Of a DNA stretch of 32,000 bases, positions 5,684 to 21,441 are shown piece by piece; the first letter of the stretch is position 1, and every line of letters starts with the position of its first letter. Source of the stretch: Massilicoli timonensis (GTDB lineage Bacteria; Bacillota_I; Bacilli_A; Erysipelotrichales; Erysipelotrichaceae); assembly GCF_900199515.1 (NCBI RefSeq), contig NZ_LT963434.1:813272-845271 (forward strand), in the 5' to 3' direction. Made by a program: the position numbers and the translations under genes. The notes beneath the pieces are model-generated. The model was not told where the DNA came from. It did not search any database and saw only the letters and a list, made by a program, of their open reading frames with translations.

Positions 5684-6556
5684 TTATAAACGCTTTTCAA
5701 AATTGCCGCTGACACTCATTCCTTCATTAAAGATCACAAATGCCTTCGGATCAAGGGAATGGATCAGCTTCTTTAAGCGGCTGACCTCATATTTGGAAAT
5801 GACCGTTACCAGCACATGGGTTTTCTCATTGGTATAAGAACCAAAACCATCCCATTTCGTAACACCGCGCACCATCGTTTGATTGATCAGTGTATCAATG
5901 CCATCTACTTTCGTAAAGATCATGACCGTCATATTGATATTTTGATAATGGATCTTATCCATCGCCGTTGACATGATAACGGAATAAATAATGGAATAAA
6001 GCGCCACCATCGGATTAAACAAGACCGCACAAAGCGCATAGACGATCAGATTGAATCCGGTAAACATCTTGCCGACACTGAAACCGGGAATTTTCTGCGT
6101 CAATAATACGCCGAGTATATCCGCTCCGCCGCCGGATCCCCCGCCGCGCAATACCAATCCGATGCCGACCCCGCAAAGCGCGCCGCCTACTAAACATGTC
6201 ATCCACGCATCTTCTAAAAACGGCACTGCCGGAATCAAGATCGCCGTCAGGGTGATGCTTTGTACAACAACGCTCAACAGCGTTCTAAAGAAAAAGCGTT
6301 TTGATATATCCTTATATGCGATCATAAACAGCGGAATATTCAAAACAAAATTCAAGATGCCGGCAATTTCCACATTGGCGGGAATCGGGATATGCAAAAT
6401 ATCCATCAAAATGGTACGCACGATCTGCGATACCCCCAAAAGGCCGCCGCTGTAATACCCCATCGGCACGATAAACAGATTCATACCGGCCGCAAACAAG
6501 ATCGAACCGATGACGACCGATAACAGTTCTTTCCACTCTACCCGCAGTTTTTCCAT
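5684..6556 (-). CDS. YitT family membrane protein (DUF2179 C-terminal domain), paralog 1
   Basis: 290 aa. Polytopic N-terminal region with GGGSGGGADILG and a soluble C-terminal domain ending VIFNEGMSVSGNFEKRL. Extended -10 TGcTATAAT lies at 6610-6602 upstream. Confidence 0.85.
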   Translation of the reverse strand: MEKLRVEWKELLSVVIGSILFAAGMNLFIVPMGYYSGGLLGVSQIVRTILMDILHIPIPANVEIAGILNFVLNIPLFMIAYKDISKRFFFRTLLSVVVQSITLTAILIPAVPFLEDAWMTCLVGGALCGVGIGLVLRGGGSGGGADILGVLLTQKIPGFSVGKMFTGFNLIVYALCAVLFNPMVALYSIIYSVIMSTAMDKIHYQNINMTVMIFTKVDGIDTLINQTMVRGVTKWDGFGSYTNEKTHVLVTVISKYEVSRLKKLIHSLDPKAFVIFNEGMSVSGNFEKRL

Positions 6557-8389: not shown

Positions 8390-9325
8390 TTATGTAAAAT
8401 AAACATAATCCTCCAAGTGGGTGATGACCTTTCTTTCCGTTTCTTTGATCATACATACTTCTCCCCCGTAATCCGCATCATATGCGACGCTGATCGTGCC
8501 GCTGATCTGTAGCCATGTTCCCACTTCCGGCAGTTCTTGCTCTGTAAAGACCCATAAAGCGATCAGTGAAGTATCTTCACTGCAGCACACCATCGCTTCT
8601 CTGCCCAGCACATAGGCACTCGCCTGCGCTTTCGGCGATGGATACACCTTGGCCTGATAAGTGATCTGCTTGCCCTCATATTTGCGCGGATGTTCCAGCG
8701 CGTCCATATACCAGATGCCATAATCATGATCAGAAAGCGTAATAGATGAATCCATGGCAAAAGGCAGACTCGCTTCATGCAGCGGCTCGATCGTACCGTT
8801 TTCATTTTCATAGATGATCTGCGCACCGCGATTCATCGCCTTTATATTATTGCGTAAATAAAGCTGATTCGTCGTCCTGTTACAGCGATTGAAAATGATC
8901 GTTTCACTGTGCCGCAGCTGTTCATATACGATCTTGCGCATATTGGTCAAATACAGATCGAAGGTAGACGCATCGACCGTTGATAAGATCTGTACCAAGA
9001 TCCAACGCAGCGGAAATACCAGATCCAAAAAGCGATCGACGCTCCACATGCCGTTCAGTTCTACCAGCACCCGATCAGGATGACAATGCTGTTCACACGC
9101 TTCCAAAAAATCCTCATTCAGTTGAGAAACGTCATCAACCATCACGATCTGCGCATTGACCTGCTTCAAAAAAGCGTCGTCATAGCCCTTTGTTCCTTCC
9201 TCGCATACCAAGATCAGATTTCTTTCATCACTTTGAAACTGCGGATCCAGCAAGGTTTCTTGAATCAGCGTCGTTTTCCCGCTTTCCAAAAAACCGCTGA
9301 ACACATACAGCAAACACTCTTTCAT
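8390..9325 (-). CDS. COG0523-related P-loop domain without CxCC, fused to a DUF1980/TIGR03943-like CC-motif C-terminal domain
   Basis: Walker A SGFLESGKTT. The region aligned to the neighbour's CICC reads MVDDVSQL. The C-terminus YVLGREAMVCCSEDTSLIALWVF...GTWLQISGTI resembles the DUF1980 CCxxD motif. ATGA start/stop overlap with the upstream gene at 9322-9325. Confidence 0.7.
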   Translation of the reverse strand: MKECLLYVFSGFLESGKTTLIQETLLDPQFQSDERNLILVCEEGTKGYDDAFLKQVNAQIVMVDDVSQLNEDFLEACEQHCHPDRVLVELNGMWSVDRFLDLVFPLRWILVQILSTVDASTFDLYLTNMRKIVYEQLRHSETIIFNRCNRTTNQLYLRNNIKAMNRGAQIIYENENGTIEPLHEASLPFAMDSSITLSDHDYGIWYMDALEHPRKYEGKQITYQAKVYPSPKAQASAYVLGREAMVCCSEDTSLIALWVFTEQELPEVGTWLQISGTISVAYDADYGGEVCMIKETERKVITHLEDYVYFT

Positions 9326-10278
9326 GATCCTTCCTCAAACAGCTTGCGCAAAGCATCCTCATTCAGCTTAGCACCGATCACACAATAACGCCCCTGCTTT
9401 TGCGCCGTCGCGCATCGCACTTCATATTCATGCGGCGTTACATCAAACTGATAGGCTTCTTGCTCACCAAGTAAGATTCCCTTTGCCCGCAGCAGCGTTC
9501 CATAGCTTTCCTGCTCGGCCAGTTCCTGCGCAATATGCTTTACTTCTTCCTTCGTATAAAGTTTGATCGTTTCCCGGGCAAAAGAAGCAAACACCTCATC
9601 CGCATGATGATGGTGGTGCTTTTCATCATGTGCATGGTGATGATGCGCATGTGCTTCTTCCTGTGAGAAATGATGATATTGCTTCCGCTTAAAATGGGCA
9701 AACAGATTTTGCCATGCCCTTTGATCCAGTTCCTCCCAAGGGGTCGTACAGATCGCCGTTTCTTCACAAATTCCACGCACGACCATGACTGCCTCGCTGA
9801 TCTCTTCTGCGGATGCGTACTGCGTCCTGCTTAATAATACACCGTCCGCATATTCGATCTGATCGCGAAAAAATTCCCCGAAGTTTCTGGCATACAGTTT
9901 CCCTTTCTTTACATCCACCACACAAAGTGCTTTATCGATCATTAAGCGCGCATCCGCTTCTTTGACCGCCTTTAATACATCGGAAAGCTTTCCCACACCG
10001 CTTGGCTCAATGATGATACGATCAGGATGAAACTGCTCCAATACCTGTAACAGCGCCGTTTTGAAATCACCGACCAGCGAACAACAAATACAACCGCTGT
10101 TGATCTCCTTGATCGCAATGCCGGTATTTTCCAAAAAAGCTGCGTCAATTCCGATCTCGCCAAACTCATTTTCAATCAATACGATCTGCTCTTTCGCATA
10201 CAGCTTTTTCATAAACTCACGAATAAGCGTCGTCTTTCCCGCACCTAAAAATCCCGAAATAATCGTAACTGCCGTCAT
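9322..10278 (-). CDS. COG0523 (CobW/YjiA/ZigA-like) G3E-family metallochaperone GTPase with His-rich tract
   Basis: Start chosen at MTAVTIISGFLGAGKTTLI (ATG 10278). Motifs: ENEFGE, the CICC metal motif, EPSG. The His-rich insert HAHHHHAHDEKHHHHHADE is encoded around 9595-9660. Confidence 0.85.
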   Translation of the reverse strand: MTAVTIISGFLGAGKTTLIREFMKKLYAKEQIVLIENEFGEIGIDAAFLENTGIAIKEINSGCICCSLVGDFKTALLQVLEQFHPDRIIIEPSGVGKLSDVLKAVKEADARLMIDKALCVVDVKKGKLYARNFGEFFRDQIEYADGVLLSRTQYASAEEISEAVMVVRGICEETAICTTPWEELDQRAWQNLFAHFKRKQYHHFSQEEAHAHHHHAHDEKHHHHHADEVFASFARETIKLYTKEEVKHIAQELAEQESYGTLLRAKGILLGEQEAYQFDVTPHEYEVRCATAQKQGRYCVIGAKLNEDALRKLFEEGS

Positions 10279-10312
10279 TACCCGATGCCTCTCTTTCCTA
10301 TTCAACTGTATC

Positions 10313-10341
10313 ATTATAACACTGATTTATCTTTTTCAGTG
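10313..10341 (-). promoter_or_regulatory. Extended -10 promoter of the COG0523 operon, overlapped by an inverted repeat (candidate operator)
   Basis: The minus strand reads TGtTATAAT (10321-10313), 35 nt upstream of ATG 10278. The inverted repeat CACTGA (10320-10325) N10 TCAGTG (10336-10341) covers the spacer and -35 position. Confidence 0.45.
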
Positions 10342-10433: not shown

Positions 10434-10442
10434 TGATACAAT
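10434..10442 (+). promoter_or_regulatory. Extended -10 element upstream of receptor gene A
   Basis: TGaTACAAT lies about 58 nt upstream of ATG 10501. The -35 is poor. Confidence 0.4.
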
Positions 10443-10500: not shown

Positions 10501-11763
10501 ATGAGCAAGTTATCAAAATCTATAAAACCAACCATCGGACAGCTGATCGCTTATTATCACCAAAAACGCTATCCTCACCAAAACATCACCGATTTCATTC
10601 AAGATGGACAACCTGACATGATCTGTACCCGCAGCGTTTATTCTCGTATGACGCACCATGTTCCGGTCAAATCGGAATATTATGTACGGCTCGCCGATAA
10701 ACTCGGATTTTCTCTTGTTTATGATGCGCAGCTCGATGAACAGATCAAAGCCTTCTATTCCAAACTGCTGCTCTTGTTTTATCAGGATTTAACCGCATTC
10801 AGAAAGAAATTGGAGGACTGCCGGCGTTTGCTTGCTTCAAAAGAGGATGATCTTTATTTTCACGGTCATCTGCTTTTGTTTGAAACGCTTTATCAGATCA
10901 GTGATCCGCATGTTTTCTACACCAAAGAAATAAATACGCTGTGTGACATCTCCTTTCTTTTCCAAGGCGATGCAATGCTGCTTTTTCATTATGTTCTCTT
11001 TGAATATTTATTTCATATTCGCTATGACTTCAAGCAAGCCGATTTTTGCATACAAGTATTAGGCTTTGACAAACAGGTCGTTGAGCCGATCCATCAGCTT
11101 ATCTATGCGCGTTATCTCGTTAATCGCTATGATACGCTGACTGCTTATCAGCTGTGCCGAAAAGTACAGGTCTTCGCATCGGAAAACGGCTATGCCCATC
11201 TATATGATGAAACGCTTTTATTGCAGGCAATGGTGGATATGGAATTAGATCACACGGCGTTTTTTGCCCGCATGCAAAGCATCAGTGCCGATCTTCGCTT
11301 ACTGCGTCCCAGCCAAAAGGTCATGGTGTATCAGTTATATGCCTATACTTATTATTTAGAACAGCAGTATGAACAGGCTTTCGCCGCATTAGATCGGATC
11401 TATCATCATTATCCCGATCAGTTGATTTACGTTTTTCCTTATTATGCGTATTTTGCGAAACTGATCCATTTGCCTAACGCGCAGTTATTACAGATTACAA
11501 AAGAAATCATCGCTTCCCATCCGGATGAACAGCAGCGGTTGCCTTATCTGCATTATATGGAAGCAAAGCTCACCCAACAAAACCCAACCCGCTTAAAGCA
11601 CGATTTATTGAAACTTTGTCCGTTCTACTTAAAGGGCAGTTATCATCGTGCATTGATCGTCGATGTGTTTCAAAGCGAAATGGAAGAATTATGCCAGCTT
11701 CGCAATTCCAATCAATCCCGTTTCCGGTTAGAAAGAGCCATCCAGCAATACTGTAATTTCTAA
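10501..11763 (+). CDS. HTH (XRE/Rgg-like) + TPR-like helical-repeat transcriptional regulator, RRNPP-like receptor A
   Basis: 420 aa. The N-terminus TIGQLIAYYHQKR...DMICTRSVYSRMTHH...YYVRLADKLGFSL fits the Rgg/PlcR-type HTH pattern. The rest is helical with TPR-like units (YQLYAYTYYLEQQYEQAFAALDRIYHHYP). SD AGAGAGG lies 8 nt upstream. Confidence 0.6.
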   Translation: MSKLSKSIKPTIGQLIAYYHQKRYPHQNITDFIQDGQPDMICTRSVYSRMTHHVPVKSEYYVRLADKLGFSLVYDAQLDEQIKAFYSKLLLLFYQDLTAFRKKLEDCRRLLASKEDDLYFHGHLLLFETLYQISDPHVFYTKEINTLCDISFLFQGDAMLLFHYVLFEYLFHIRYDFKQADFCIQVLGFDKQVVEPIHQLIYARYLVNRYDTLTAYQLCRKVQVFASENGYAHLYDETLLLQAMVDMELDHTAFFARMQSISADLRLLRPSQKVMVYQLYAYTYYLEQQYEQAFAALDRIYHHYPDQLIYVFPYYAYFAKLIHLPNAQLLQITKEIIASHPDEQQRLPYLHYMEAKLTQQNPTRLKHDLLKLCPFYLKGSYHRALIVDVFQSEMEELCQLRNSNQSRFRLERAIQQYCNF

Positions 11764-11779
11764 GAAGGCAAGTTATGAT

Positions 11780-13075
11780 ATGAAACAAAATACACCGGTC
11801 AGGATTGCGGAAGCACACCTGCCTATGATTATGTTTCTGATTGAATACCACCGCCAACAGTTGCTCGAAATGACGAAAAGTCCCCGTTATACCAAATCCC
11901 GGTTTCTATTAGATGCGCATAGCATGCGGATCTGCACCGGTAAAAAGTATCATGATCTATGTAATGGGAAACTGAGCGACAACTATGAGATCTATCATTT
12001 ACTGTTGAAGAACTTAAATACCTGCTATTACTATCTGCCTTCCCTCATTGCTTTGTTAAATGAACTCCATTCCTGTATGTTTTTGGCAGCGGAACAACAA
12101 AAGAAAGCAAAGCTTGTTGATCTGGCCAATCAGGCAGTACGGTCATTGAAGCCGTATCGCACTTCTGTCTACTATCGTGAAATGGAGAAGATGTATTTGT
12201 TAATTGCCCATTATCATGAAAATCTATCCGTCGATCCTGCCGATATCCATCTTTTCTACGACATCAAAGCGTATATAGACCCGCTGTTGAAACCGATCTT
12301 GTTGGAAATCGGCTGTTATTATTTCAGTATGGTGGCATACAGTCAAACACATTATATGAATCTATTGCATGACGCACAGCAATTAGAGATGAACAGCATC
12401 GTATTGGATCTTCTGAAATGTACGGCTCTGATTCGCAAGAATGAGCATCTGAAAGCAATCGCCAAATTAGAAGCGCTGCTCCCTGTTTTGAAAAGACAGA
12501 ACGCTGAGTATTATCTGGCAAAAGTGTATAACATGTTAAGCATCTCTTATCATTATTTTAATAAGACATCTTCCATAGAGTATCTGCATAAATCAATCAT
12601 ACTGTTGGAAAAGCAGAAGCAGTATCATTTGCTCGGATCTTCTTATCACAATATGGCAGTTACCTATGTTGAGCTAGGCTATTATGCAGAGGCACTATCG
12701 GCTTTTAAGCAAGCTATCTTGTATAATCCACGCAAATCTATTTATGATCTTCCCTATTTATTCAGATGTCTTGAACATAACAAAACACTATTAAACAAAC
12801 AAGCGCTATTTGATATTCTTACATGTGCTAAAACCTATCTTGATCAAGTAACCCCATGTTTACAATTAGTCTACTTATTCTATGAAGCAATAATAAATAA
12901 TGAATACTCTTACATTACATCTGTTTTATTACCAAAATTTTACTTTTTTCAAAATGAAATCAGATGTAATGCCTTTTATTTCAGTATCGTTTTCGACCAT
13001 CTATCTCAGATCTGCATACGCTGCAATAAACAAAAATATTTTTATAAACTTTACGAAAAAGTCATGAACAGCTGA
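11780..13075 (+). CDS. HTH-like + TPR regulator, RRNPP-like receptor B (paralog of A)
   Basis: 431 aa, 16 nt after A. The N-terminus MIMFLIEYHRQQ...MRICTGKKYHDLCNGK aligns with A (LIxYxHxx...ICT). There is a clear TPR unit YHNMAVTYVELGYYAEALSAFKQAILYNP. The SD is weak or distant. Confidence 0.6.
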   Translation: MKQNTPVRIAEAHLPMIMFLIEYHRQQLLEMTKSPRYTKSRFLLDAHSMRICTGKKYHDLCNGKLSDNYEIYHLLLKNLNTCYYYLPSLIALLNELHSCMFLAAEQQKKAKLVDLANQAVRSLKPYRTSVYYREMEKMYLLIAHYHENLSVDPADIHLFYDIKAYIDPLLKPILLEIGCYYFSMVAYSQTHYMNLLHDAQQLEMNSIVLDLLKCTALIRKNEHLKAIAKLEALLPVLKRQNAEYYLAKVYNMLSISYHYFNKTSSIEYLHKSIILLEKQKQYHLLGSSYHNMAVTYVELGYYAEALSAFKQAILYNPRKSIYDLPYLFRCLEHNKTLLNKQALFDILTCAKTYLDQVTPCLQLVYLFYEAIINNEYSYITSVLLPKFYFFQNEIRCNAFYFSIVFDHLSQICIRCNKQKYFYKLYEKVMNS

Positions 13076-13098
13076 ACATACTCCCGCTATTTTATGCA

Positions 13099-13121
13099 AT
13101 TTTACCTAATAATTGTAAAAT
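13099..13121. promoter_or_regulatory. Perfect 7-bp inverted repeat upstream of the peptide gene (candidate receptor box)
   Basis: ATTTTAC (13099-13105) N9 GTAAAAT (13115-13121), about 83 nt upstream of ATG 13204. The right arm overlaps a TAAAAT -10-like hexamer. Confidence 0.35.
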
Positions 13122-13203
13122 ATCTTATGAAAATAACATGAATTTCCACTTTTCATCTACTCCGAGTGTAATTGCATATACTTATGAGCGGGAGGTGAAT
13201 CTA

Positions 13204-13341
13204 ATGCGGAAATGGTTATCAGCTTTCTTTTTGACTGCTGTTCTTGTTTCACCGTTGCTCCTCAACGCAAATAACGAATCGCAAGATGCGCCGGAATTAT
13301 GCGCAGGAAGCAATGGGATACTTGAACAAGGTATTTTCTAG
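13204..13341 (+). CDS. Small secreted pro-peptide (45 aa), candidate signalling peptide precursor
   Basis: MRKWLSAFFLTAVLVSPLLLNA|NNESQDAPELCAGSNGILEQGIF. GGGAGGTG SD lies 6 nt upstream of ATG 13204. It has a basic N-terminus, a hydrophobic core and an AxA-like LNA site. It sits immediately downstream of the receptors on the same strand. Confidence 0.5.
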   Translation: MRKWLSAFFLTAVLVSPLLLNANNESQDAPELCAGSNGILEQGIF

Positions 13342-13440: not shown

Positions 13441-13541
13441 TCTCATCCTATGACCTGATCAAGATAAATGGCAGTGAATAACACTACGATCATAAAGCAA
13501 AGCAATTTATCTGATCGTCAGGCCATAAAAACAAGATGAGA
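13441..13541. repeat. About 100-bp imperfect inverted repeat / long hairpin
   Basis: Left arm tctcatc-c-tatgacctgatcaagataaat (13441-13469). Right arm atttatctgatcgtcaggccata-aaaaacaa-gatgaga (13505-13541). About 27 pairable positions in three blocks, with a 35-nt loop and no flanking T run. Confidence 0.6.
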
Positions 13542-13619
13542 AAATGATAGAATTGACGGGGATCAATGATTTCATTTTCTCTTTTTATTTTGCAATCGGC
13601 AAGTATGAAAACGAGCATA

Positions 13620-13648
13620 TTCTCATCTTTCTTTTTTCATGTTATAAT
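13620..13648 (+). promoter_or_regulatory. Promoter of the transglycosylase gene
   Basis: TTCTCA (13620-13625), N17, then TGtTATAAT (TG 13640-13641, TATAAT 13643-13648). AAGGAGG SD precedes GTG 13678. Confidence 0.5.
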
Positions 13649-13677: not shown

Positions 13678-14382
13678 GTGAAACGCTACCAAAAAGCGAT
13701 CCTCTCAGTCGCAGCAGTCTTGCTTCTCGTCTTAGCCGGCTTGCTGATCAGCGGCTATCTAAAATATAAAGAACTGATCAATGAACGCCCTTTGGCAGCA
13801 GTGATCTCACAAGCAAAAGAAAATCCTTCCTATGTAGAAATCGAAGAAATCGATCCCTTTTTCATAGAGGCGATCTTAGCGATCGAAGATCCTGCCTTTT
13901 ATGAACACGGCGGGATTCGTTTAAGCAATATCATTGAAGCCTTTTTTACCAATGTAATAGAACATGAGTATGCGATGGGTGGCAGTACCATCTCGCAGCA
14001 GTTATGTAAAAACTTATATTTTAATCAGAAGAAGCAGCTGCTTCGCAAAGTCAGTGAATTATATTTCGTACATGATATCGAAAGCATGTTAGAAAAAGAT
14101 GAAATACTGGAGCTGTACCTGAATGTCATTTATTTCGGTGATGGCTATTATGGAATCAAAGAAGCCTGCGAAGGTTATTTCCATACGACACCGGATCAAC
14201 TGACAAAGGCACAGGCGACCATGCTTGCGGGATTACCACAGGCACCTGCCAATTATCAGTTGAGCGATGGTTATGAACTAGCAAAAAAGCGGCAGAAACA
14301 GGTACTGGAAGCGATGGTGGAACAAGAGATCATCACTGAAAAAGAAATGCGGACGATTTATAAAGAAGCAGTGGAATCATGA
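13678..14382 (+). CDS. Monofunctional biosynthetic peptidoglycan transglycosylase (GT51, MtgA-like)
   Basis: GTG start, N-terminal TM anchor. GT51 motifs EDPAFYEHGGI, GGSTISQQ, RKVSELY, KDEILELYLNVIYFG and LAGLPQAPANY. No transpeptidase domain. Confidence 0.85.
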   Translation: MKRYQKAILSVAAVLLLVLAGLLISGYLKYKELINERPLAAVISQAKENPSYVEIEEIDPFFIEAILAIEDPAFYEHGGIRLSNIIEAFFTNVIEHEYAMGGSTISQQLCKNLYFNQKKQLLRKVSELYFVHDIESMLEKDEILELYLNVIYFGDGYYGIKEACEGYFHTTPDQLTKAQATMLAGLPQAPANYQLSDGYELAKKRQKQVLEAMVEQEIITEKEMRTIYKEAVES

Positions 14383-14514: not shown

Positions 14515-15453
14515 TTACATTGTTTTCCAGCATCGTTCTTTCATAAAAGCGACAATAGCAGAACGATCCTCGCCCTCATAGTATTTCACAAGCAGTTTCT
14601 TAAATTCCGGAACTTCCTTTTCAGGAATCACCAAAAAGCCGCCTCCATGCGCAATCAGATAATGATTTGCGAAAATAACCGATGCGCGTTTATTGCCATC
14701 TAGAAAGATCTGTGTTTTCATACAATATAGACACAGGTTGATTGCAATATTGATAATTTCATCGTTTGCTTCCGTAATCTCGCGAATTTTATTTTTAACA
14801 TCTATCTCATTAGGCAATGGCGGAATATAGGATGAACCGCCAATGGTGACCGGAACCCCGCGGATCCGTCCACCTTCTGCAAAAAAGCCTTCATTGACAA
14901 GCCTTGCAATATAACTAAGCATATAGTAATCAGAATGGCTTGCGACGACATCACGATCGAGAATAAACTCCCATGCGTGTTTCAAATTCAAGATCTTTTG
15001 GACATCGGTTGCATTCATGCCGAAGACCTTTCCGTTTTCTATGATTTCTTCTGTCTGTGGGAAAGAAGTTGCAATTCCTTCCAAAACCGCTTGATCATAG
15101 ATATTTATTTTCATATGGGCGCGGGCAAAGGCAATGTTATTGATTATATCGGCAGTCAGCCCGTCTTCCACATATCCGACAGCAGCAAGCTGTTTTTCAA
15201 TGTTGCGAATTTCTTTCTTAATCTCTCTGGCTTCTCTGGCATTGCGAAGAAGCAGATTATAAAGTTCTTCCGTATATGTTCCTACATAGATGGAAGTCAA
15301 TTTTCCCGCGGTTCGCTTTCTAACATAAAGATAGGTTCCGCTACCCTGCTTTTTGATTTCCGGTGTTCCATCATAAGGCAATAGACGCAGTCTTGTTTGA
15401 AGATCTGCACGAGTTCTAAGTAATTCCTGAATTTCATGATATGCGGCTGCCAT
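14515..15453 (-). CDS. Fic/Doc family protein with non-canonical active-site motif (QIFLDGNKR)
   Basis: 312 aa. Fic-fold hallmarks VLEGIATSF...EEIIENG and GGRIRGVPVTIGGSSYIPP. The motif region TQIFLDGNKRASVIFANHYLIAHG is encoded at 14686-14712, where canonical Fic has HPFxDGNGR and Doc has HxFxDANKR. Confidence 0.8.
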   Translation of the reverse strand: MAAAYHEIQELLRTRADLQTRLRLLPYDGTPEIKKQGSGTYLYVRKRTAGKLTSIYVGTYTEELYNLLLRNAREAREIKKEIRNIEKQLAAVGYVEDGLTADIINNIAFARAHMKINIYDQAVLEGIATSFPQTEEIIENGKVFGMNATDVQKILNLKHAWEFILDRDVVASHSDYYMLSYIARLVNEGFFAEGGRIRGVPVTIGGSSYIPPLPNEIDVKNKIREITEANDEIINIAINLCLYCMKTQIFLDGNKRASVIFANHYLIAHGGGFLVIPEKEVPEFKKLLVKYYEGEDRSAIVAFMKERCWKTM

Positions 15454-15812: not shown

Positions 15813-17039
15813 TTACGATTGTTCCAAAGGAATGATTCCGCGATTGATCTTCATTGCCAAGATGCGTTTGACACTTTCATCAATACGAGCCTGCGACAGT
15901 TCTCCCTGTTCCAGCGCATTTTGCAGCGCGGACACAGCCTCCTGCGGATTATCCGGACATAACAGCAGATCTACCCCTGCCGATATCGCCCGCACTGCGA
16001 TTTCTCCACTGCTGTAATAATCGCTCATTGCCCCCATCTGCAAGCCGTCGGTAATGACGACCCCTTCAAAATGCAGTTCCTTACGCAATAGATCCGTAAC
16101 GATCTTGCTTGAAAACGGAGCCGGCTGATCATCAATATCCGGCAAGATCAAATGTGCGATCATTACCATATCACTGCCGGCTTCTATGCCGGATTGAAAC
16201 GGCAATAATTCATTCCCACGCAGTTCATCCAGCGACTTATACACATAAACCGCACCCAGATGCGTATCAGCCGAAGTATCACCATGTCCCGGAAAATGCT
16301 TCAATGCCGTACCGACACCGCCATCGTGAAACCCTTGTACCGCCGCTTTCACCAAGACCCCTGCCTCATGAAAATCATCGCTGTACGCCCGATCACCGAT
16401 GACCGTATTGGCCGGATTCGACCACACATCTGCCACCGGTGCCAAATCAAAATTAAAACCGAGCGCTTTCATATCGGAAGCGATCGTAAACGCATTTTGA
16501 TAAGCGACATCGCTGCCTTGATCCTTATAGTTTAACATCGGTCCGATATAGGTCGTCGATACGCTGTCCATCAGTCGATTGACCCGACCGCCTTCCTCAT
16601 CACAAGTCAAGATCAGCGGGATCTTCGCATAGCTCTGCAAATTGGTCAGCATCGTCCTTACCTGCTCCTGACTGATGAAATTTTGACGACTGTATAAAAT
16701 ACCGCCGACCGGCATTTTCGCTAACGCCTGTGCGCTGACATCCGATGCAGCCGTTACCGGTCCCACACCGGTCAAGCTCTCCGGACTGACGATCAACAGC
16801 TGACACAGCTTCTCATAAGTCGTCATCTCCCGCATCATTCTTTCCGCCTGTTTTTCGATTTGTTGCTTGCGCAGCGTCGCCGCATCGGTTACAGGTGTTT
16901 CCTGTTTCTTTTTTTCTTCCTGCTTCACTGCTTCTTTTTCAGGCGCTGTCGGTGTTTCTTCCTTGCCGAAAAAACCGCACGCCGTACAGCTAAGCAACAA
17001 TGCCGTCATAAGCAGCATACGAATGTGCTTTCTTTTCAT
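15813..17039 (-). CDS. Glycoside hydrolase family 3 N-terminal-domain lipoprotein (beta-N-acetylhexosaminidase, NagZ-like)
   Basis: Signal peptide with lipobox MLLMTALLLSC. Ser/Glu/Lys-rich linker. GH3 signature KHFPGHGDTSADTH and DRAYSDD. Confidence 0.85.
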   Translation of the reverse strand: MKRKHIRMLLMTALLLSCTACGFFGKEETPTAPEKEAVKQEEKKKQETPVTDAATLRKQQIEKQAERMMREMTTYEKLCQLLIVSPESLTGVGPVTAASDVSAQALAKMPVGGILYSRQNFISQEQVRTMLTNLQSYAKIPLILTCDEEGGRVNRLMDSVSTTYIGPMLNYKDQGSDVAYQNAFTIASDMKALGFNFDLAPVADVWSNPANTVIGDRAYSDDFHEAGVLVKAAVQGFHDGGVGTALKHFPGHGDTSADTHLGAVYVYKSLDELRGNELLPFQSGIEAGSDMVMIAHLILPDIDDQPAPFSSKIVTDLLRKELHFEGVVITDGLQMGAMSDYYSSGEIAVRAISAGVDLLLCPDNPQEAVSALQNALEQGELSQARIDESVKRILAMKINRGIIPLEQS

Positions 17040-20586: not shown

Positions 20587-21441
20587 ATGAAGCATAGCTT
20601 ATTAGAACAATGTAAAACGATCATTCTGATCCTGATCGGCAATGCGATACTGGCATTTGCCATCGCGGCGTTTATTTTGCCGGCGCGCCTGATTGCAGGA
20701 GGAACGACCGGACTGGCGCTGCTCGGCGAACATTTTTTCGGTCTGCGCATTTCCCTCAGCGTATTGATCGTCAATATCGTCATGTTTGTGCTGGGCTTTT
20801 GGATCCTCGGTAAAAAGTTTGCCTTGACGACCATTTTATCCACCCTGATCTATCCGCTGTTTCTCGATGTGTTTTCTTCGATGGACGCATTACAGGATCT
20901 CAGCGATGATCTGTTGCTTTCAGCGGTCTATGCCGGTCTGTTGATCGGTGTTGGCATCGGACTTGTCATCAAAGCAGGCGCATCTACCGGCGGCATGGAC
21001 ATCCCGCCGCTGATCTTACAGAAGAAATACGATCTGCCGGTCAGTGTTACGCTTTATCTGTTTGATACGACGATCCTGCTCGCCCAGATGGCTTTTTCTT
21101 CCACCAGTCAGGTATTGCACGGAATCATGGTCGTTCTGCTTACCTCGCTTGTCATCAATAAAGTGCTGCTGTTTGGCAAAGGACAGATGCAGATGCTCAT
21201 CATTTCCGATCGCTATGAGGAAATAAAAGATGCTTTCTTACATGATCTGGACTGCGGCGTTACGCTTGTGGATATTGAAACCGGTTGGGGAAAGGTGGCA
21301 CAAAAGGCAGTCTTATCCGTATTGTCCCATCGTAAGCTGACCGAAGCAAAGCAGATCGTCATGCGCATCGATGACAAAGCATTTATGATGATCAACGAAA
21401 CGACCGAAGTGCATGGGCGCGGCTATACCATTGCCCGCTAA
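20587..21441 (+). CDS. YitT family membrane protein, paralog 2
   Basis: 284 aa. GASTGGMDIPPLIL plus a C-terminal DUF2179-like domain (AFMMINETTEVHGRGY). Confidence 0.8.
   Translation: MKHSLLEQCKTIILILIGNAILAFAIAAFILPARLIAGGTTGLALLGEHFFGLRISLSVLIVNIVMFVLGFWILGKKFALTTILSTLIYPLFLDVFSSMDALQDLSDDLLLSAVYAGLLIGVGIGLVIKAGASTGGMDIPPLILQKKYDLPVSVTLYLFDTTILLAQMAFSSTSQVLHGIMVVLLTSLVINKVLLFGKGQMQMLIISDRYEEIKDAFLHDLDCGVTLVDIETGWGKVAQKAVLSVLSHRKLTEAKQIVMRIDDKAFMMINETTEVHGRGYTIAR

Follow-up and report, generated by a model that had tools for sequence, protein, structure and literature searches.

The four-gene block described here lies in a 32,000-nt stretch of contig NZ_LT963434.1 of Massilicoli timonensis (hereafter the window), a member of the Erysipelotrichaceae isolated from the human gut (PMC6796691). 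We consider it probable that this block, whose co-directional genes are called A, B, X and T below (coordinates in Table 1), is a peptide signalling cassette of the RRNPP type, in which two anciently duplicated receptors of the class with an N-terminal helix-turn-helix (HTH) domain and about nine tetratricopeptide repeats (TPRs), as in NprR and AloR, are followed by a propeptide gene, X, and a peptidoglycan glycosyltransferase gene, T, with both X and T under regulation. The predicted products of A, B and X are exact matches to RefSeq proteins of the species. A and B are separated by 16 nt on the same strand, with an SD-like (Shine-Dalgarno-like) GAAGG directly behind the stop codon of A; X follows B after 128 nt, so that B separates A from X, and the 336-nt spacer between X and T carries a sigma-70-like promoter of its own. 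A sequence-only reading of this DNA had already proposed an RRNPP-type module, consisting of same-strand open reading frames (ORFs) of 420 and 431 aa 16 nt apart and, 128 nt past the second, a 45-aa ORF with a strong SD sequence. The ORF coordinates agree with that description, the peptide strings quoted in it are present and the N-terminus of the small ORF is indeed basic and hydrophobic. The proposal itself gains support from gene sizes and spacing, from conservation of the arrangement in a distant relative, from a Rap-like structural match and from an HTH profile match.

Homologs of the two receptor candidates are exceedingly rare. Word-index searches of 5.8 billion clusters with A, B and the family alignment returned near-identical proteins only, and an exhaustive HMMER search of 1.84 billion representatives turned up just one more distant protein related to A, P0006 (430 aa, E 5.8e-8), here called A2, which is 20% identical to A over the full length and also matches B (E 9e-12). 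The locus of this protein, L005, has the order A2 (430 aa), 12 nt, B2 (438 aa), 81 nt, X2 (43 aa) and then T2 (234 aa), with the sequence GAAGGGG behind the A2 stop codon at the place equivalent to the GAAGG of the window. The four-gene order A-B-X-T is thus common to the window and L005 despite a GC content of 45% in one and 32% in the other, unlike the outer flanks, and the receptors are 20-24% identical between the two. Purifying selection was found on all genes, with a ratio of non-synonymous to synonymous substitution rates (dN/dS) of about 0.1-0.15 for A and of 0.24 for B outside a variable segment described below.

The claim that A and B align to each other did not survive in its direct form (BLASTP E 0.4) and holds transitively, through the L005 pair: A-A2 2e-17, B-B2 4e-30, A2-B2 7e-16, B-A2 3e-13 and A-B2 3e-8. 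Because both match A2 and B2, A and B are true paralogs; A-A2 and B-B2 are the orthologous pairs, so that the duplication is older than the split between the lineages of the window and L005, with both copies kept in both. The family is apparently nearly an orphan, with two lineages found among the approximately 15 billion proteins covered in total. Further members were found neither in the window nor in the fetched loci; a metagenome scan with the B alignment returned same-species contigs only; and eleven loci of GTDB genomes that contain related T genes have no A/B homolog. Scanning GTDB genomes with A gave no match, in a species-representative collection from which M. timonensis is apparently missing or masked, since the best match of the window T there is only 55% identical although M. 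timonensis genomes exist in NCBI. One contig with "56% identity" to B, L029 (VOFI01003159.1), was considered as a third lineage and rejected as a frameshift-rich assembly of the same species; its frameshifts probably stem from error-prone reads, and its peptide variant GALEQDIF is accordingly unreliable.

The signature of RRNPP systems as formulated by Bernard et al. (2023, PMC10075063) has five points: the propeptide is 10-100 aa long and carries a Sec signal, and it is paired with a receptor of 250-500 aa that is matched by TPR hidden Markov models at E < 1e-5 over a coverage of > 65%, the two genes being separated by -50 to 191 bp. The propeptide candidates (X 45 aa, X2 43 aa) and the receptor candidates (A 420, B 431, A2 430 and B2 438 aa) of both loci lie within these size ranges, and the same-strand gaps between B and X (128 bp) and in L005 (81 bp) lie within the range of spacing. 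RRNPPA receptors fold into a superhelix of 5-9 TPRs (PMC9765709, PMC12700828), and a class with an HTH and nine TPRs has been described among them (PMC12700828). An N-terminal XRE-type HTH is an optional part of these receptors and marks those that are transcription factors. Both A and B are predicted to be all-helical. The TPR unit of B matches TPR_2 (E 7.1e-6, 31/34 positions) and TPR_12 (E 1.4e-6, 51/77 positions) just under the Pfam gathering scores, and a PDB profile search matched consensus TPR proteins at this unit only; B2 matches TPR_12 as well (E 3.7e-6). The sole TPR match of A is TPR_14 at E 0.019, and its status as a TPR protein rests on homology to the B-type proteins. Of the earlier description of helical proteins with TPR-like units, the helices of both proteins and one clear TPR in B stand.

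An AlphaFold2 model of B, built from a six-sequence alignment, has a mean pLDDT (predicted local distance difference test score) of 70.5 with a confident C-terminal half, and its approximately 19 helices form roughly nine pairs past the N-terminal domain. The first match of this model in a Foldseek search of the PDB is RapF (3ulq; E 4.6e-4, template-modelling scores 0.48/0.54, 365 aligned columns), and RapH, RapI, RapJ, phi105 Rap and pLS20 Rap are also among the matches; a structure search of BFVD returned generic TPR proteins only. The fold predicted for B is that of a TPR protein, compatible with RRNPP receptors and not diagnostic of them. The structure and profile comparisons that the sequence-only reading had asked for did not place A and B in a non-RRNPP family, RapF being the best match of B and the N-terminal profile aligning with HTH domains.

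This N-terminal relationship was seen with hhalign, by comparing a profile of the four aligned N-termini (A, B, A2 and B2) with an alignment of nine XRE-type HTH_3 sequences, three of them taken from ORFs of the fetched loci and six from outside these loci; each of the nine matches PF01381 at E <= 3e-12. The family profile aligned with a probability of 75% (P 2.5e-5, score 30.9) over template columns 6-67 of 80, with all helices in the expected register: helix 1 reads 'IGkLIaYyR' and is followed by a 13-residue insertion, the recognition helix reads 'ICTrSxLSkLxnGK', and 'YxxLxxkLg' follows. Two hundred column shuffles gave a mean score of 9.6 (sd 1.8, maximum 16.0), and the reversed query scored 12.7. 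Taken singly, A2 (P 2.7e-5), B2 (1e-4) and A (0.0076) give P values in descending order of strength. The best match to a curated HTH model, HTH_3 at E 0.11, falls on residues 45-61 of P0006, in the register of the recognition helix. We read these alignments as pointing to descent of the family from a regulator with an XRE-type HTH and TPRs, whose HTH would have degenerated, more so in M. timonensis and most in B. The earlier statement that both N-termini fit a degenerate HTH receives support from the family-level profile, and none from the curated libraries or from B alone.

The same structural results leave room for a different output. A and B may sense X and yet not bind DNA, their N-terminal domain being a decayed helical bundle, and act by protein-protein interaction, as a phosphatase or anti-activator of an unlinked regulator, in which case the linkage to T would be historical; we regard this as improbable. 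Rap proteins, which are without an HTH, act as phosphatases or anti-activators (in part after PMC12700828), and loss of the HTH founded their subfamily (PMC12700828). That the best structural matches of B are Rap proteins over nearly their full length, that curated libraries contain no HTH model matching the family and that B alone has no HTH similarity all agree with such a mode of action. It is harder to reconcile with a family HTH profile match that covers all helices in register and scores far above shuffles, with lengths of 420-431 aa, which fit an HTH with nine TPRs better than Rap (~380 aa), and with the linkage of A-B-X-T, which, as described below, outlasts a change of the upstream flank.

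The candidate propeptide X (MRKWLSAFFLTAVLVSPLLLNANNESQDAPELCAGSNGILEQGIF) starts with MRK and a hydrophobic stretch of approximately 17 residues. X2 (MKLFAKIMLVVILAAPIITPGTDPKPTPQPYGGCTGTACMGLF) starts with MKLFAK, and the two share, by hydropathy, a basic start, a hydrophobic stretch of 12-17 residues and a polar tail, with cleavage guessed to occur after LLLNA. They also have in common a C[AT]G[ST] motif and a C-terminal end G-[IL]-F. The SD sequence of X2, AGGAGGTGA, stands at the same distance from the start codon as that of X (Table 1), the common form being GGAGGTGAA-CTA-ATG. How X2 evolves can be seen from L031, which belongs to a sister strain of the organism behind L005 and has 91% nucleotide identity: between L031 404-535 and L005 5931-6062, X2 differs by 9 changes, 6 of them synonymous and 3 non-synonymous, and at least 6 of 9 changes being synonymous has a neutral probability of about 0.008 by our own binomial estimate (synonymous sites taken as ~1/4 of the total). 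The three replacements are confined to the final nine codons (CSGTACMGII in L031, CTGTACMGLF in L005) and the leader is unchanged, a clustering that matches the usual position of RRNPP pheromones at the propeptide C-terminus (PMC10075063). Within M. timonensis X is essentially invariant, the identical protein being encoded on 205 contigs, with two rare single substitutions. From these sequence features X appears to be a real, conserved gene with the properties of a propeptide, and the sequence-only reading's own check, whether a small ORF recurs in homologous loci, came out in its favour, as the sole distant relative, L005, keeps a small ORF of like type at the equivalent place. A lipoprotein reading of X was rejected, as there is no lipobox before the Cys residue, which lies far from the hydrophobic segment.

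T is matched by two family models (Pfam Transgly E 1.9e-55; NCBIfam mono_pep_trsgly E 5e-39) and is 55-56% identical to T2 at the equivalent position in L005. A third homolog is encoded in L008, a metagenome-assembled genome of the Erysipelotrichaceae, and the three proteins are mutually 55-59% identical. L008 keeps the upstream synteny of L005 (glycerate kinase, Na/Ala symporter, T) and is without A, B and X, a 345-nt spacer (L008 5657-6000) replacing A2-B2-X2 (L005 2988-6687). M. timonensis has another upstream flank, with two cobW genes, yet A-B-X-T stand together. A-B-X behaves as an insertion/deletion unit which, where present, lies directly upstream of T on the same strand, in two lineages. 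T is the best candidate for a target of A and B, by analogy drawn from these two lineages only, because the layout of regulator, propeptide and target is that of nprR-nprX-nprA.

The conservation of T as the fourth gene could also be taken to mean that X acts with or on T, as a small protein that is secreted or anchored in the membrane, and that A and B are TPR scaffolds or regulators answering something else. The hydrophobic stretch of X could equally be a membrane anchor, X is invariant across the two alleles of B described below, and TPR similarity is generic. Such a cell-wall module nevertheless seems quite improbable to us: T occurs without A, B and X in relatives with the same flank and hence does not need X; the size, position, SD sequence and C-terminal diversification of X are typical of RRNPP propeptides; and the sequences of A and B are without signal peptide or membrane segment. 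That X is the precursor of an antimicrobial or modified peptide whose production A and B regulate, as its conserved Cys, Gly-rich C-terminal part and small size might hint, is very improbable: neither the window locus nor L005 has a gene for a modification enzyme, for a dedicated exporter or for immunity, X has no Pfam match, and its leader is Sec-like, not double-glycine. Whatever probability these three alternatives and the signalling cassette leave over belongs to something else.

In RRNPP systems the mature peptide enters the cell through an oligopeptide permease (Opp) and alters the activity of the receptor to which it binds. If the block is an RRNPP-type signalling cassette, it might work as follows. 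A and B would be co-transcribed, probably translationally coupled, and cytoplasmic. X would be exported by way of its N-terminal signal-like segment, processed extracellularly into a short peptide from its C-terminus, with the ending G-[IL]-[FI], and, at high density, re-imported by an oligopeptide permease encoded elsewhere; oligopeptide permease genes are absent from the window. The TPR groove of A, of B or of both would then bind the peptide, and the receptor so loaded, most likely a hetero-oligomer of A and B or a pair of activator and modulator, may alter the transcription of X and T through its degenerate XRE-type HTH, which is better preserved in A than in B. Cell-wall polymerisation would thereby be tied to population density.

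A second pattern was noted within B itself, where a segment of approximately 315 nt is dimorphic. BLAST alignments break at 12633/12949, and the same-species flanks are ~99% identical to the window. The nine contigs typed fall into two allele classes, 'win' (the window, L003, L026 and L029) and 'alt' (L001, L002, L004, L027 and L028), both of which are common in M. timonensis records. Over codons ~286-396 the alleles are identical at 50% of amino-acid and 53% of nucleotide positions, with synonymous sites saturated and a non-synonymous divergence (dN) of 0.45, as against a dN of 0.009 and a synonymous divergence (dS) of 0.037 over the rest of B. The 'win' segment has a GC content of 31% and the 'alt' segment one of 41%, against 39% for the remainder of B, and neither segment is closer to B2 than the other (18% identity). 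A search of the window for a silent copy of the alternative segment, as a possible donor, was negative. In the confident TPR region of the B model the segment takes up about three of the predicted helix pairs, and it looks, from these sequence comparisons, like an import by recombination from an unsampled B lineage that has been maintained as a polymorphism. Neither this dimorphic segment nor the linkage to T had been noticed in the sequence-only reading.

Several results weigh against a peptide signalling cassette. The first comes from the dimorphism: the X protein is identical in both B-allele backgrounds while a segment of ~105 receptor residues changes by 50%, and such invariance is unexpected if the segment sets specificity for X. 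The dimorphism does not fit a simple pherotype pair of receptor and peptide. A second group concerns the HTH. Sequence searches of Pfam, NCBIfam and the PDB found no HTH in A or B, nor did a PDB profile search with the N-terminal alignment or a Pfam search with the family consensus; B alone gives no HTH signal with hhalign (P 0.46); residues 1-80 of the B model are of low confidence; and the family P rises to 0.003 when the three locus-derived templates are used without the other six. Third, the ties to known receptors are loose. The Foldseek E-values of B are marginal (1e-4 to 1e-3, template-modelling scores of about 0.5), with CTPR, OGT, LGN, KLC and APC scoring equally, and the single-sequence AlphaFold2 model of A is unusable (pLDDT 51), its Foldseek matches being insignificant and PlcR appearing at rank 41 with E 0.46. 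For A and B, Pfam and NCBIfam give only generic TPR models at E <= 1 in place of RRNPP subfamilies, and phmmer and profile searches retrieve no PDB chain of an RRNPP receptor at E <= 10, in agreement with the sequence-only reading, which recognised neither protein as a member of a characterised subfamily. Finally, no operator motif common to the promoters was found, and with two lineages only the conservation statistics are thin.

It is tempting to speculate, beyond the signalling cassette as such, that A and B are the two subunits of an obligate RRNPP receptor, or a pair of activator and anti-receptor, kept in tandem over a long time; that a peptidoglycan polymerase has come under peptide quorum control; and that the anciently diverged, sharply bounded B segment is a balanced polymorphism which retunes the choice of partner or ligand, for example for eavesdropping on foreign peptides, while the organism's own signal stays unchanged. 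This combination is a good deal less likely than not to hold. To our knowledge, 'pherotype' switching by the receptor alone has no precedent in RRNPP systems.

Among known systems, NprR-NprX of the Bacillus cereus group offers the closest parallel. NprR, at ~420 aa, combines an XRE-type HTH at its N-terminus with nine TPRs, and a ~43-aa Sec-type nprX lies directly downstream on the same strand, with nprA next. The order of receptor or receptors, a propeptide-like gene of ~45 aa and a candidate target is the same in the cassette, which differs in having two receptor paralogs instead of one, no detectable sequence similarity to NprR-NprX, and a peptidoglycan glycosyltransferase as candidate target where that of NprR is a protease. 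Moreover, the putative active part of X is the extreme C-terminus, while that of NprX is internal and a named exception (PMC10075063). The likeness to Rap-Phr consists in the best structural matches of the B model and in a small gene downstream that, in the cassette, encodes a putative secreted propeptide; compared with Rap, A and B are ~40-50 residues longer, have an HTH-like N-terminus and show no match at the sequence level. PlcR-PapR takes its signal from the C-terminal end of a propeptide of ~48 aa that leaves the cell through Sec, and pherotypes arise by diversification of both receptor and peptide. The PlcR HTH segment ICHQSEVSRIESG, used in the HTH template, resembles ICTKSTLSKLENGK of the family; PlcR itself has 285 aa and 5 TPRs, and in the cassette the receptor segment varies without a change of the peptide. 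The nearest precedent for two receptors with one signal is provided by Rgg2/Rgg3-SHP of Streptococcus pyogenes, in which two paralogous receptors respond to one peptide signal with opposing outputs. Rgg2 and Rgg3 are encoded at separate loci, each with its own shp, and have the 5-TPR Rgg fold, whereas the receptors of the cassette are adjacent, of a size for ~9 TPRs, and share one candidate propeptide gene. In addition, the SHP peptides of Rgg2/Rgg3 exit through PptAB, not Sec (PMC10075063).

RRNPP systems are well known, and many new candidate families have already been predicted in large surveys (PMC10075063). Erysipelotrichaceae are not mentioned in the main text of three large RRNPP surveys, and the cassette, if real, adds an RRNPP-type system in this family. 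New features would be an orphan receptor family without a sequence link to known subfamilies, in which homology annotation calls A and X 'hypothetical'; conserved tandem receptors, that is, two co-inherited paralogs with one propeptide; a conserved linkage to a peptidoglycan polymerase, suggesting, if the cassette is what it seems, density-dependent control of wall synthesis; and a mosaic, dimorphic receptor whose variation is uncoupled from the peptide. The host has been cultured (DSM 103513, PMC6796691), so that these predictions are directly testable. Should they prove false, the locus would still be a clean, conserved block of a small ORF and TPR genes adjoining a cell-wall enzyme.

Table 1. 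Features of the A-B-X-T block, in order of position in the window.
Feature	Position	Strand	Basis or remark
Candidate extended -10 promoter element TGATACAAT, 5′ of A	10434..10442	+	Read by eye; putative
Gene A, 420 aa	10501..11763	+	ORF; WP_102267718.1 'hypothetical protein'; candidate cytoplasmic helical-repeat receptor/regulator
XRE-type HTH-like domain of A, residues ~9-79	10525..10737	+	hhalign; insertion behind helix 1
Gene B, 431 aa, paralog of A, TPR protein	11780..13075	+	ORF; WP_102267720.1 'tetratricopeptide repeat protein'
Dimorphic segment of B, ~315 nt	12634..12948	+	Codons ~286-390; two more changes at 395-396
Canonical TPR unit of B, residues 287-318	12638..12733	+	Pfam TPR_2, TPR_12, TPR_8, TPR_1
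Shine-Dalgarno sequence of X, GGGAGGTGA	13190..13198	+	5 nt before X start
Gene X, 45-aa candidate propeptide	13204..13341	+	ORF; WP_178200069.1 'hypothetical protein'
Imperfect inverted repeat between X and T, 29 nt	13528..13591	+	79% complementary; 6-nt loop
Sigma-70-like promoter of T, TTCTCA-17-TATAAT with TG	13620..13648	+	Consensus match only, 10/12
Gene T, 234-aa membrane-anchored monofunctional peptidoglycan glycosyltransferase	13678..14382	+	Pfam, NCBIfam

Some intergenic elements of the block can be described further. The candidate element TGATACAAT upstream of A has no -35 hexamer, and the consensus promoter scan is silent on it. Situated about 30 nt ahead of the -35 hexamer of the T promoter, the inverted repeat in the X-T spacer has a predicted RNA folding energy of -21.4 kcal/mol (z -2.2); judged from its sequence, it could possibly be a weak terminator or attenuator or a protein-binding site. 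It has no counterpart in L005, and Rfam recognised no RNA family in the window or L005. The motif TATGAAAA, which occurs near all three promoters, was considered as an operator and rejected, its half-site spacing being inconsistent and its window-wide count 14 against 2.6 expected; the excess copies stand largely in start-codon contexts, as several sites read by eye indicated. Another motif, AATTGTAAAA, is found upstream of X in both lineages and was likewise not retained as an operator, since by our own rough estimate it could be due to chance.

The window is chromosomal, neither phage nor plasmid, and the genes around the block are housekeeping genes, encoding CobW-type GTPases, YitT proteins, CoaBC/CoaX, a GH3 hydrolase, an M24 peptidase and others. 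Divergent from A lies a gene for a CobW-family GTPase with a histidine-rich stretch HAHHHHAHDEKHHHHH (9322-10314, minus strand); it is adjoined by a gene for a second CobW/DUF1980 protein (8390-9325), and the two look like a pair of metal chaperones. On the other side, convergent with T, a 312-aa Fic/DOC-domain protein (Fic E 3.3e-6) is encoded at 14515-15453 (minus strand); an esterase takes this place in L005, so that the Fic/DOC gene falls outside the conserved block. A GH3 (NagZ-like) glycoside hydrolase gene at 15813-17039 (minus strand), about 1.4 kb from T and not conserved at the L005 locus, may serve cell-wall recycling. Three paralogs of YitT/DUF2179 membrane proteins are encoded within the 32 kb (5684-6556, 20587-21441 and 26734-27684), and a gene for an AAA_14 + DUF4143 ATPase (25277-26476, minus strand) lies in a stretch of lower GC content (38-41%) that may be a small foreign insert.

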